64,000 bases of DNA from Saprospirales bacterium (GTDB lineage: Bacteria; Bacteroidota; Bacteroidia; Chitinophagales; Saprospiraceae): NCBI GenBank assembly GCA_031425155.1, contig JANPIV010000044.1:7413-71412 (forward strand). The letters run 5' to 3'. This document shows, in pieces, positions 36,011-38,664 of this stretch. Position 1 is the stretch's first letter. Every line of letters begins with the position of its first letter. The position numbers and the translations under genes are program-made. The notes under the pieces are model-generated. The model saw nothing but the letters and a program-made list of their open reading frames with translations, ran no database searches and had not been told where the DNA came from.

Positions 36011-37282
36011 ATGTCGCATAAGTATTTGAATATCACAGTATTGCTTTTGCTGTTTGCCTTAAATCTCTCCGCAGCCACCCACCACGTCGGCAATGGCCAG
36101 CCCCACGTCACCATTCGCCAAGCATTGTCTAAAGCCCAATCCGGTGACACTATTTGCGTCCATGAGGGTACCTACGCCGAGGGCAACCTGACCATAGACA
36201 AAGCCCTGACGCTTATCGGCATCGGCTATCCGGTGCTGGATGGACAGCACCAGTGCGAAATGATCACCGTGACGGCTTCCGACGTGTGCATCCGGGGCTT
36301 CGAGCTGCACAACAGCGGACAGCTCAGTACGCTCGACATAGCGGGCATTAAAGTGCTCTCCGCCAACCGCGTGGTGCTGGAAGACAACTGGCTGCGCGAT
36401 TGCAATTTCGGCATTTACCTCTCCGACGCCAACGATTGCCAGGTGGTGCGCAACGACATCCAGGGCATCATCAAGGAAGAGCAGAACAGTGGCAACGGCA
36501 TTCACCTGTGGAAGTGCGCGCGGGTGCTGGTGGAATGGAATCACCTGACTGGCCACCGCGACGGCATCTATTTCGAGTTTGTGACCGACTCCGAAATCCG
36601 CTATAACGAAAGCGAACAAAACCTGCGCTACGGCTTGCATTTTATGTTTTCCCACCACGACTACTACCACCACAACCAGTTCCACCACAACGGCGCGGGT
36701 GTGGCGGTGATGTACTCGCGACAAGTTGAAATGACGCAGAACGAATTTGGTTACAATTGGGGCGGCAGTGCTTATGGCCTGCTACTCAAGGACATTTCGG
36801 ACAGCCATATCTGGAAAAACACCTTCGAGCATAATTCGGCGGCCGTGTACATGGAAGGAGCCAGCCGCATTATCCTGGAACAAAACCAGTTTCGTGAAAA
36901 CGGCTGGGCCCTGCGGGTGCAGGCCAGCTGCGATGCCAACGTAATCCGCCAAAACAACTTTTTCGGCAACTCCTTCGATGTGTCCACCAACGGCAGCCTG
37001 GTACTCAACACTTTCGACGGCAACTACTGGGACCGCTACGAGGGCTACGACCTCCACCGCGATGGCGTGGGCGACGTACCCTTCCGCCCGGTCTGCCTCT
37101 ATGCCGTGGTGGTAGAGCGGATGCCCTATGGCCTCATGCTAATGCGCAGCCTGATGGTGTATCTGATGGACAAAGCGGAGAAAATCATCCCCTCGCTCAC
37201 GCCGGAACAACTCATGGACGCAAAACCGGCGATGCAACCTTTAACAATGAATGATGAATTAATAAGAAGGAATGCCACTTGA
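36011..37282 (+). CDS. nosD: Nitrous-oxide reductase maturation protein NosD (parallel beta-helix)
   Basis: 423 aa. Signal peptide and repeated right-handed beta-helix units. Confidence 0.9.
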   Translation: MSHKYLNITVLLLLFALNLSAATHHVGNGQPHVTIRQALSKAQSGDTICVHEGTYAEGNLTIDKALTLIGIGYPVLDGQHQCEMITVTASDVCIRGFELHNSGQLSTLDIAGIKVLSANRVVLEDNWLRDCNFGIYLSDANDCQVVRNDIQGIIKEEQNSGNGIHLWKCARVLVEWNHLTGHRDGIYFEFVTDSEIRYNESEQNLRYGLHFMFSHHDYYHHNQFHHNGAGVAVMYSRQVEMTQNEFGYNWGGSAYGLLLKDISDSHIWKNTFEHNSAAVYMEGASRIILEQNQFRENGWALRVQASCDANVIRQNNFFGNSFDVSTNGSLVLNTFDGNYWDRYEGYDLHRDGVGDVPFRPVCLYAVVVERMPYGLMLMRSLMVYLMDKAEKIIPSLTPEQLMDAKPAMQPLTMNDELIRRNAT

Positions 37283-37658
37283 TAGCTTTTATTCTAAAAA
37301 AAATATGATCATGCCTACTGATTTGCCCATTGCACAGTCCGTACCTAATGACCACGGCTTCGCTATCGCGCTGGCTGACCAGCTGGATTTTCGTCCCGAA
37401 AAATTCAACAGCAAAGTGCTGTTCCGCGAGGCGGGTTTTAGCCTCATCCTGTTCGCTTTATTGAAAGACCAGGTAATTCCGGCGCATAAAACGCCGCATA
37501 ATGCCTACCTGCAATGTCTTGAAGGTGAGGCGACCGTGGCCATTGGCGACGTGGAATATCCCCTGCAACAAGGCGAAATCATCCTGCTGCCCAAGGAAAT
37601 CTTGCACGGTATCGTAGCTTTGAAAGACACCAAACTATTGCTGATAAAACAGCAATAA
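37272..37658 (+). CDS. Cupin-domain protein
   Basis: C-terminal cupin barrel (..HKTPHNAYLQCLEGEA..LLPKEILHG). The start may be 37305 or 37311. Confidence 0.7.
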   Translation: MPLDSFYSKKNMIMPTDLPIAQSVPNDHGFAIALADQLDFRPEKFNSKVLFREAGFSLILFALLKDQVIPAHKTPHNAYLQCLEGEATVAIGDVEYPLQQGEIILLPKEILHGIVALKDTKLLLIKQQ

Positions 37659-37670
37659 AACCGCCAGGCA

Positions 37671-38066
37671 ATGAAACGGGATATACAAAACAGGCAAGAC
37701 GTAGAACATTTTGTGGATGCGTTCTACAAAAAAGTCGTGGATGATGAGATCATCGGATACATTTTTAATCAGGTGGCCGGTTTTAGTTGGGAAAAGCACA
37801 TTACGGTCATGTACAGTTTCTGGGAGACGGTGCTCTTTGGCGTAATGTCGTACAAAGGCAACCCGATGCTGGCCCATATTGAACTGCACAAAAAAGTACC
37901 GTTGAACGCCGCGCATTTTGACCAGTGGAAAAAGTTGTTTTTTGAAACCATTGATGACCTTTTTGCAGGCGAAAAGGTAGAAGATGCCAAGCGGCGCGTA
38001 GAGGAAATGAGTGTCTTAATTCAACATAAAATCAAGGCCAGCGAAAGCAAAGGCTTTATCCAATGA
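37671..38066 (+). CDS. Group III truncated hemoglobin (trHbP/Ctb-like)
   Basis: 131 aa. FYKKVVDDEIIGYIF..FWETVLFG..YKGNPMLAHIELH pattern matches 2-on-2 globins. Confidence 0.8.
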   Translation: MKRDIQNRQDVEHFVDAFYKKVVDDEIIGYIFNQVAGFSWEKHITVMYSFWETVLFGVMSYKGNPMLAHIELHKKVPLNAAHFDQWKKLFFETIDDLFAGEKVEDAKRRVEEMSVLIQHKIKASESKGFIQ

Positions 38067-38100
38067 AACCTGCATTTTTTCAAGATTAAAATACAATTAC

Positions 38101-38664
38101 ATGAAAATCAACTTCTTATTTCGCTCTTTGCTCGCCTTGTTGGTGATGCTTACCTTTGCCTACTGCACCAACACCGCGCCCGACCAATCATCTGCCACCA
38201 CCCAATCGTCGGCCTCCGAAGCCGGAGGTCAATCCGCCGTGCAGGACGATGTATCGCAAAAAGACGTGGTGAAGGTAGCCGTTGGCAGCCCGGACCATAC
38301 CACTCTGGTCACCGCCATAAAAGCCGCTGAACTCGTGGATGTACTGTCCAACGCCGGACCGTTCACGGTGTTCGCGCCGACCAATGCCGCGTTCAGCCTA
38401 TTACCCGCCGGCACGGTGGAAGGCCTGCTGAAACCCGATAAAAAAGAGGCGTTGCAGGATATTTTGCAGTACCATGTCGCCGTGGGCGTGTACAAACCGG
38501 ACATGCTGCAGGACGGCCAGGTGATCTCCATGGCCAATGGCGGCAACGTCACTATCGGCCTGAAAGACGGCAAAATGACCGTCAACGGTGCCAACGTGCT
38601 GGCGACCATCCCGGCCAGCAACGGCATCGTTCACGTAATTGACGGGGTGCTTTTACCTAAATAA
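38101..38664 (+). CDS. Exported fasciclin (FAS1) domain protein
   Basis: Signal peptide. FTVFAPTNAAF and NGIVHVIDGVLLP FAS1 motifs. Confidence 0.88.
   Translation: MKINFLFRSLLALLVMLTFAYCTNTAPDQSSATTQSSASEAGGQSAVQDDVSQKDVVKVAVGSPDHTTLVTAIKAAELVDVLSNAGPFTVFAPTNAAFSLLPAGTVEGLLKPDKKEALQDILQYHVAVGVYKPDMLQDGQVISMANGGNVTIGLKDGKMTVNGANVLATIPASNGIVHVIDGVLLPK

Follow-up and report, generated by a model that had tools for sequence, protein, structure and literature searches.

A nos-associated subfamily of fasciclin lipoproteins, and a cupin and a truncated hemoglobin that join nos clusters loosely, in the N2O reductase operon of an uncultured Saprospiraceae bacterium

In soils, sediments and wastewater, organisms with a clade II nitrous oxide (N2O) reductase, NosZ, are considered important sinks of N2O, and many of these organisms are Bacteroidota. 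The electron-transfer and assembly partners of clade II NosZ are far less understood than those of clade I and, to our knowledge, Bacteroidota have neither NosR/NosX nor the NosGH module. The published Bacteroidota nos clusters list only cytochrome c, nosZ, nosB/L, nosD, nosF and nosY genes (PMC9697520). We analyzed a stretch of 64,000 nucleotides (the window) from an uncultured Saprospiraceae genome (GenBank assembly GCA_031425155.1, contig JANPIV010000044.1; G000 and C44 in our set), which carries a complete Sec-type (clade II) nos operon. This operon has the same core genes in the same order as the clusters of Flavobacterium azooxidireducens and Dyadobacter fermentans (PMC9697520) and, like them, encodes a NosB-NosL fusion and a Sec/lipoprotein NosZ and has no nosR or nosX. 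It differs from them in three extra genes between nosD and nosF, which encode a cupin, a group III truncated hemoglobin and a lipoprotein with a FAS1 (fasciclin) domain. The FAS1 protein belongs to a dedicated nos-associated subfamily, which in a scan of one genome per species was confined to genomes with nos genes. The open-access literature yielded no link of nos clusters with genes for a fasciclin, a cupin or a globin.

The genes of the operon, with the likely start where it differs from that of the longest open reading frame (ORF), are as follows.

32101..32568, + strand: cytochrome c lipoprotein (PF00034; signal peptide ends ...VAFAC)
32644..34644, + strand: nosZ, Sec-dependent (clade II) N2O reductase (TIGR04246, 913 bits, cut-off 625; lipoprotein signal ...LLHSGC)
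34736..35770, + strand: NosB-NosL fusion (four transmembrane-like segments, then a NosL domain, PF05573, at residues 228-342)
36011..37282, + strand: nosD (TIGR04247, 420 bits, cut-off 300)
Likely 37311..37658 (longest ORF 37272-37658, 128 aa), + strand: Cupin_2 gene (PF07883)
37671..38066 (131 aa), + strand: group III truncated hemoglobin (PF01152; match to 2ig3)
38101..38664 (187 aa), + strand: FAS1 (fasciclin) lipoprotein of the nos-associated subfamily (PF02469)
Likely 38736..39458 (longest ORF from 38685), + strand: nosF, ABC ATPase (PF00005)
39442..40209, + strand: nosY, ABC-2 permease (PF12679; seven transmembrane-like segments)

The Sec-type NosZ, together with matches to the NosD, NosF, NosY and NosL models, identifies the cluster as clade II and Sec-dependent. 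The cytochrome c is presumed to be the electron donor to NosZ. The NosB-NosL fusion is known from Flavobacterium and Dyadobacter (PMC9697520). ORF and domain searches bore out the three short genes that the first-pass annotation of this DNA had placed between nosD and nosF, as well as their spacers of 12 nt and 34 nt. The overlap of the cupin start with the nosD end, which it had also described, is probably an artifact of taking the longest ORF. The 32 cupin homologues (104-135 aa, most 108-117) begin near residue 14 of that ORF, so the cupin probably starts at the ATG at 37311, 28 nt past the nosD stop. Likewise, nosF probably starts at 38736, because NosF of relatives aligns from residues 17-19; with this start, the FAS1-nosF spacer is 71 nt long and is filled by a perfect 25-bp hairpin. 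The three genes are tightly packed, as had been noted, and arranged as one transcription unit with nos. Between them, no terminator was seen and there is no space for a promoter. A sigma-70 promoter and terminator scan stayed at chance level, with a sigma-70 model that is unsuited to Bacteroidota. Inside the operon there are three copies of the Bacteroidota -7 motif TAnnTTTG, about as many as expected by chance, which gave no evidence for internal promoters. This layout suggests that the three genes are co-transcribed with nos.

The association with nos was assessed in 401 evenly sampled Bacteroidota genomes. NosD was present in 136 of them; the ORFs in the 19 kb around each NosD were scanned with hidden Markov models (HMMs) built from the window proteins, and 135 loci were counted after exclusion of the window's own. 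A gene was taken as linked if it lay on the same strand, within the cluster or at most 1.5 kb from it.

FAS1: linked in 40 of 135 loci, 8 families, 29 genera
Globin: linked in 16 of 135 loci, 6 families, 11 genera
Cupin: linked in 14 of 135 loci, 9 families, 13 genera

The window's own genome (6.8 Mb) holds four FAS1 genes, two to three globins and one strong cupin, and random placement would link FAS1 to about 1.1% of the loci and globin and cupin to about 0.55% each (binomial p of 5e-45, 9e-17 and 5e-14 for FAS1, globin and cupin). The gene arrangement is far from chance. FAS1 lay beside nosZ in 32 of its 40 loci, in the order cytochrome c-FAS1-nosZ in 23 and nosZ-FAS1-nosB in 9; in two other families it lay between nosB/L and nosD. 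The globin mostly followed nosY. Cupin and globin occurred together in five loci, above expectation (Fisher p 0.013), and were then adjacent. Median gaps to the neighboring genes were 12-31 nt, the 31 nt being that of FAS1. Co-occurrence across Bacteroidota nos loci, a check proposed in the first-pass annotation, was thus positive for all three genes but to unequal degrees, and strongest for FAS1.

The FAS1 protein matched PF02469 over the full profile length (114.3 bits). It carries a lipoprotein signal with lipobox Cys22 and is predicted to be exported, in agreement with the earlier view of a secreted protein. The AlphaFold2 model (predicted local distance difference test, pLDDT, 84.7) comprises a signal helix, a disordered linker rich in Ser, Thr and Ala, and a canonical FAS1 domain (pLDDT >90), and Foldseek matched it to FAS1 structures with E values from 1e-13 to 1e-9, so that both family and fold assign it to FAS1. 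The nos-linked FAS1 proteins have a signature, which in the window protein is C22, G43-Q44, D49, S52 and N84-A85. The lipobox Cys, an N-terminal GQxxVxDDxS motif and N84-A85 were each present in at least 91% of 102 nos-linked FAS1 proteins vs. at most 26% of 39 others. In the tree, nos-linked FAS1 proteins stood apart from the paralogues of the window's own genome, and their subclades tracked the operon position.

The same subfamily was recovered when one genome per GTDB species was scanned with an alignment of nos-linked FAS1 proteins as the query. Among the best 80 loci, 36 of the 41 high-scoring copies (≥200 bits against the subfamily HMM) adjoined nos genes; the remaining five lay on short contigs or were unlinked, in genomes carrying nosD elsewhere. 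Only 1 of the 39 lower-scoring copies was nos-linked. Cultured strains are among the carriers and belong to Chryseobacterium, Winogradskyella, Hanstruepera and Tenacibaculum as well as to Flavobacterium (F. celericrescens TWA-26 and F. longum), Kaistella (K. soli), Runella (R. defluvii DSM 17976, with the order ...nosY-FAS1-cupin) and Muricauda (Muricauda sp. NFXS6, with the order cytochrome c-FAS1-nosZ...nosY-globin). Nos-type FAS1 genes also lay beside nos clusters in metagenome-assembled genomes (MAGs) labelled Archangium (Myxococcota), Planctomycetota and Neomarinimicrobiota (L201, L207 and L217), which reflects either spread of the module beyond Bacteroidota or binning errors. Two possible correlates of FAS1 were uninformative: 143 of 146 NosZ and 126 of 137 cytochrome c proteins had a lipoprotein signal, with no dependence on FAS1 (Fisher p 0.56 and 0.76, respectively).

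We searched 40 relatives of the window genome for NosD and compared their nos loci with the window proteins; FAS1 was searched in the same 41 genomes. All 19 other nos-positive species of the window's genus had a FAS1 copy of at least 183 bits. This copy was in the nos locus in 18 of them and on a separate small contig of a fragmented assembly in the 19th. The five congeners without nos had no FAS1 above 108 bits, and the score distribution was bimodal. Over all 40 relatives, a high-scoring FAS1 was found in 25 of 27 nos-positive vs. 1 of 13 nos-negative genomes (Fisher p 2e-7). Its position varies within the genus: between nosD and nosF in 10 of 20 loci, and otherwise between nosZ and nosB-L or after nosY. 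In five relatives (G028, G031, G033, G034 and G039), the nos-type FAS1 was unlinked to nos. The cupin was found in the nos locus of 1 of the 19 other nos-positive congeners (G008), plus several nearer MAGs. None of the 19 had a nos-linked globin; the nearest one was in another family (G027), directly after nosY. The first-pass annotation had set a lack of the genes in closely related nos loci against a nos role; this lack applied to the globin entirely and to the cupin largely, but not to FAS1. The gene-order, phyletic and signature evidence for the association of FAS1 with nos is strong.

The loci of relatives showed further features. A Haem_bd (PF14376) protein is encoded between nosB-L and nosD in close relatives (L253, 6145-6642; L254, 1302-1799). 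In several relatives of the same genus and order (L023, L024, L031-L034 and L039), nosF and nosY are separated by an unassigned insert of 0.9-1.8 kb. nosY is split over three frames in G019 (L032, 7807-8566), and nosZ and nosD of L190 are in many fragments. Either the nos clusters are decaying or the assemblies contain many frameshift errors.

The globin matched PF01152 (Bac_globin) with 35.6 bits (cut-off 21). Its best match among solved structures was Ctb, a truncated hemoglobin of group III (2ig3, E 1.1e-11); group I globins matched at only about 0.007. The heme-pocket residues Tyr19 (B10), His43 (E7), His69 (F8) and Trp86 (G8) were invariant in 34 of 34 aligned sequences and align with Y19, H46, H72 and W86 of 2ig3. 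Judged by these sequence features, the protein is a group III truncated hemoglobin. No signal peptide or membrane segment was predicted, which places the globin in the cytoplasm. The idea that it guards NosZ by direct shielding is therefore not tenable, since NosZ is periplasmic. In the tree, 12 nos-linked globins from three families formed one clade (support 99/97). An origin of the window globin by duplication of the genus's housekeeping truncated hemoglobin, of which this genome has its own copy on contig C41, was not supported: the window globin falls outside the clade of this housekeeping protein (support 100/98) and pairs with the globin of G019.

The cupin matched PF07883 with 34.3 bits (cut-off 27.2). 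AlphaFold2 gave a simple, small barrel of nine strands (pLDDT 89.6), so that Pfam and fold agree on the cupin assignment. Its nearest folds in Foldseek were the uncharacterized small cupins 1yhf, 5j4f and 2ozj (template modeling score 0.77-0.79), and the fold search for a clue to function returned only these uncharacterized small cupins and generic Mn/Cu cupins. Only H59, G72 and H99 (numbering of the 115-aa form) are invariant among the homologues. The first His of motif 1 is kept, position +2 is Thr, Lys or Val, and position +7 is a conserved Ala. Thus, two of the four ligands of the canonical metal site (HxH...E in motif 1 and His in motif 2) are retained. No signal peptide or transmembrane segment was predicted, and the cupin is probably cytoplasmic. 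A part in periplasmic metal assembly, as proposed earlier for this cupin, is unlikely on both counts. The earlier statement that none of the three proteins is a recognized Nos factor agrees with our searches: no Nos model of Pfam or NCBIfam was matched even at E ≤1, and none of the three proteins matched an NCBIfam model.

The regulatory setting of the operon was examined together with the recurrent neighbors of nos clusters, which were surveyed by clustering the remaining ORFs around 160 nos loci. The upstream features are listed below.

30915..31346, - strand: Rrf2-family regulator (PF02082, 72.6 bits; TIGR00738, 74.8 bits; the NsrR model scores weakly)
31483..31680, + strand: 65-codon ORF similar to the cupin's N-terminal part (BLASTP 33% identity over 40 aa, E 1e-7, single comparison)
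31865..31931, + strand: nos promoter region, in which Crp/Fnr-type boxes (TGA-N6-TCA) are paired

The Rrf2 gene is divergent from the nos promoter region, and its product has a CX6CX5C motif; motifs of this type hold an Fe-S cluster in NsrR/IscR-type regulators. A REC-Crp/Fnr hybrid regulator gene lies downstream of the operon. The TGA-N6-TCA pattern has six matches in the window vs. 0.07 expected, with none in 31898-41096. Near the operon, the paired boxes occur only upstream of the cytochrome c gene and not inside the operon. Another paired box, at 31383-31416, stands in front of the 65-codon ORF, and a strong hairpin (31741-31778) follows this ORF. The ORF is probably, by its similarity, a remnant of an upstream cupin copy; at the equivalent place, relatives have a cupin after the cbb3-maturation gene DsbD_2. 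In the survey, Rrf2 regulators flanked nos clusters in 66 loci of 20 families and RIC/ScdA di-iron proteins in 43 loci of 17 families, more often than the globin did. Other recurrent neighbors were NnrS-like membrane proteins, Crp/Fnr regulators, HemN and USP. A 404-aa membrane protein (15 loci) and a 605-aa protein without a Pfam match (11 loci) also recurred. Given the recurrent regulators and the upstream Crp/Fnr-type boxes, the globin lies in an NO/O2-responsive neighborhood.

With moderate confidence, we propose that the three genes are accessory members of the Bacteroidota nos operon and fall into two functional units. The FAS1 lipoprotein, lipid-anchored like NosZ and cytochrome c, would be a structural partner of the periplasmic N2O-reducing module and could, at the membrane, dock, organize or stabilize NosZ together with its electron donor. 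This mode of action, docking or stabilizing, is suggested by analogy with CupS and LRC6. The FAS1 gene, which directly adjoins nosZ in most lineages, would have moved to between nosD and nosF in this genome and some of its congeners. The cupin and the group III globin would form a cytoplasmic cassette belonging to an NO/low-O2 stress set (Rrf2, RIC/ScdA, NnrS-like and Crp/Fnr proteins), and the globin, expressed from the nos promoter, would bind O2 or NO as conditions change between oxic and anoxic. The survey is best explained if this stress set attaches repeatedly to nos clusters, the joining of cupin and globin being repeated but loose. The biochemical roles of the three proteins and any contact of FAS1 with NosZ are our inference. 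A more tentative formulation makes FAS1 a dedicated, so far undescribed part of the Bacteroidota N2O-reducing machinery, a membrane-anchored adaptor that would bind NosZ, cytochrome c or both, and the cupin-globin pair a portable module that would extend N2O reduction to settings with exposure to O2 or NO. It is a similarly tentative thought that such an adaptor might hand NosZ to NosB-L and be needed for full activity or stability of NosZ in its carriers.

Several observations weigh against this proposal. About 70% of the Bacteroidota nos loci have no linked FAS1 and about 90% no linked globin or cupin; therefore, none of the three is generally required. Shared lipid anchoring does not single out FAS1, because nearly all NosZ are lipoproteins. 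The window globin falls outside the main nos-linked clade and pairs with a globin of G019 that is not nos-linked, and it may have been recruited to this operon independently. The cupin is not strictly tied to nos, because its homologues stay at the same chromosomal place where nos has decayed or is missing; in these relatives they follow cbb3-maturation genes without a nos cluster or lie beside nosF/nosY fragments. In the nearer Saprospiraceae MAGs, which were found through the cupin, the slot between cupin and FAS1 holds a DUF7670 gene (nosD-cupin-DUF7670-FAS1-nosF), two RhuM genes on the opposite strand (nosD-cupin-RhuM-RhuM-FAS1-nosF) or nothing (nosD-cupin-FAS1-nosF). The DUF7670 gene occupies the place of the window globin (L253, 8363-8710). 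A sister lineage has nosD-cupin-(60-aa ORF)-nosF and no FAS1, as seen in a MAG from NCBI and, independently, in a Logan assembly. The 60-aa ORF (L260, 4767-4949; L261, 2377-2559) shares 79% identity with the window globin over the 56 C-terminal residues, and its spacer is likewise 12 nt; it corresponds to the window globin minus residues ~7-75 and has lost the heme-pocket residues. With this internal deletion, at least one sister lineage can do without the globin. The variable slot, the degraded globin and the grouping of the window globin also speak for a passenger cassette, in which the cupin and the globin (and FAS1 at this position) would have landed in an insertion-prone spacer by recombination at dispersed hairpin repeats, would be co-expressed only by accident and would have no nos-specific role. 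The spacer between FAS1 and nosF carries one of these repeats.

38663..38725, + strand: perfect 25-bp AT-rich hairpin without a U tract (-37.1 kcal/mol, z -9.95)

The hairpin belongs to an AT-rich (AATGATG)n family with 161 near-matches genome-wide, often as inverted pairs 40-130 nt apart; a half copy lies at the nosD/cupin junction (37242-37274) and a full copy after FAS1 (38663-38733). The nosD C-terminus is altered: it exceeds that of relatives by about 10-12 residues, and this added part reads through the half repeat. In relatives, the FAS1-nosF spacer holds unrelated long hairpins, so that the position is conserved and the sequence is not. The variable content, the repeats and the altered nosD end indicate that the slot is recombination-prone. 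A passenger origin is a reasonable reading for the cupin and the globin of this genome, for which the absence of a nos-linked globin from the 19 congeners also speaks. As a general explanation we consider it rather unlikely. It does not account for the nos association of globins and cupins in six and nine families, at 20-25 times the random rate, nor for their placement on the same strand as nos with typical gaps of 12-19 nt. The clade of 12 nos-linked globins argues for long-term retention, and FAS1 is left unexplained, since it tracks the presence and absence of nos. Long hairpins were also seen after nosZ (34647-34729; arms of 31-36 nt) and between nosB-L and nosD (35808-35948; 40-nt GC-rich arms, 95% complementary). 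Three of the longer spacers of the operon thus carry a long hairpin, which would fit a role in transcript processing, stability or attenuation.

For FAS1 and the globin, other functions than those proposed here were weighed against the same data. FAS1 might be a maturation factor that works with NosL, NosD and NosFY and delivers copper or sulfur to NosZ; the genus loci with FAS1 between nosD and nosF (10 of 20), the nosB/L-nosD position in the two other families and the acidic and polar side chains of GQxxVxDDxS, which could handle a metal, are consistent with this. Phylum-wide, however, 32 of the 40 copies adjoin nosZ or the cytochrome c gene and not the maturation genes, beyond the lipid-anchor Cys the protein has no conserved cluster of Cys, Met or His residues like those of Cu(I) chaperones, and no metal-binding FAS1 domain is known among the structure matches. 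Delivery of copper or sulfur therefore seems improbable to us. Still less credible is a general low-oxygen envelope or adhesion lipoprotein, which would share the nos regulon and never touch NosZ. Fdp of Rhodobacter (1w7d, 51% identity) is indeed described as an adhesion protein, in work cited in PMC10199937, and the nos-type FAS1 is unlinked or on the opposite strand in some lineages. A general anoxia adhesin would also be expected in nos-negative relatives that keep the same regulators, whereas the subfamily was found in nos-positive genomes in 41 of 41 cases in the species scan and in none of the five nos-negative congeners. The globin, possibly with the cupin, could instead be a heme-based sensor that tunes nos expression or activity and not a scavenger. 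The function of group III truncated hemoglobins is unsettled, and Ctb does not protect Campylobacter jejuni against NO (PMC5577044), a finding that also counts against the role we propose. The match of the cupin to the AraC ligand-binding domain model (24.6 bits) and the Rrf2 and REC-Crp/Fnr hybrid regulators flanking the operon would fit a sensor as well. Nevertheless, globin and cupin have no output or DNA-binding domain, the operon that the globin would regulate has the globin gene inside it or at its distal end, and the only conserved adjacent partner of this gene is the cupin, in only a third of cases. A sensor is thus very unlikely in our view.

A FAS1 subfamily limited to nos-positive genomes, and mostly encoded beside nosZ, is a testable candidate for a missing partner of NosZ, and its signature could replace the label "fasciclin domain-containing protein" in annotation pipelines. 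The recurrent link of the globin gives group III truncated hemoglobins a physiological setting, namely N2O respiration at the oxic/anoxic boundary.

Each of the three proteins has described counterparts. For the globin, the nearest are Ctb (Cj0465c) of C. jejuni, its best-studied relative, which has identical TyrB10, HisE7, HisF8 and TrpG8 and a similar size, and the truncated hemoglobin of Helicobacter pullorum. The regulator NssR mediates the induction of ctb by nitrosative stress; ctb fails to complement an Escherichia coli hmp mutant and has been linked to oxygen metabolism (PMC5577044). Ctb thus belongs to an NO-responsive NssR regulon, and the operon of the window globin is flanked by Rrf2 and Crp/Fnr-type regulators. 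In contrast, ctb is a stand-alone gene of a host-associated epsilonproteobacterium, whereas the window globin gene lies inside an N2O reductase operon beside a cupin. The counterparts of the cupin are the uncharacterized small cupins SPy1581 (1yhf), HP0902 (5j4f/5j4g) and Dde_2303 (2q30), which share the single-domain barrel of ~100 aa and, like the window cupin, have the canonical metal motif only in part. The nos-linked cupins keep only two His residues, and the three described proteins have no known link to denitrification genes. For FAS1, the same fold (Foldseek E values from 1e-13 to 1e-10) is found in Fdp of Rhodobacter sphaeroides, in CupS of the cyanobacterial NDH-1MS complex (6tjv_Q, 2mxa), with identities to Fdp and CupS in the range of 43-51%, and in the single-domain bacterial protein MPT70 (1nyo). 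The nos-type subfamily differs from other FAS1 proteins in its lipid-anchor Cys, its linker rich in Ser, Thr and Ala, the GQxxVxDDxS motif and N84-A85. In CupS of NDH-1MS and in LRC6 of phycobilisomes, FAS1 domains serve as accessory subunits of energy-converting complexes.

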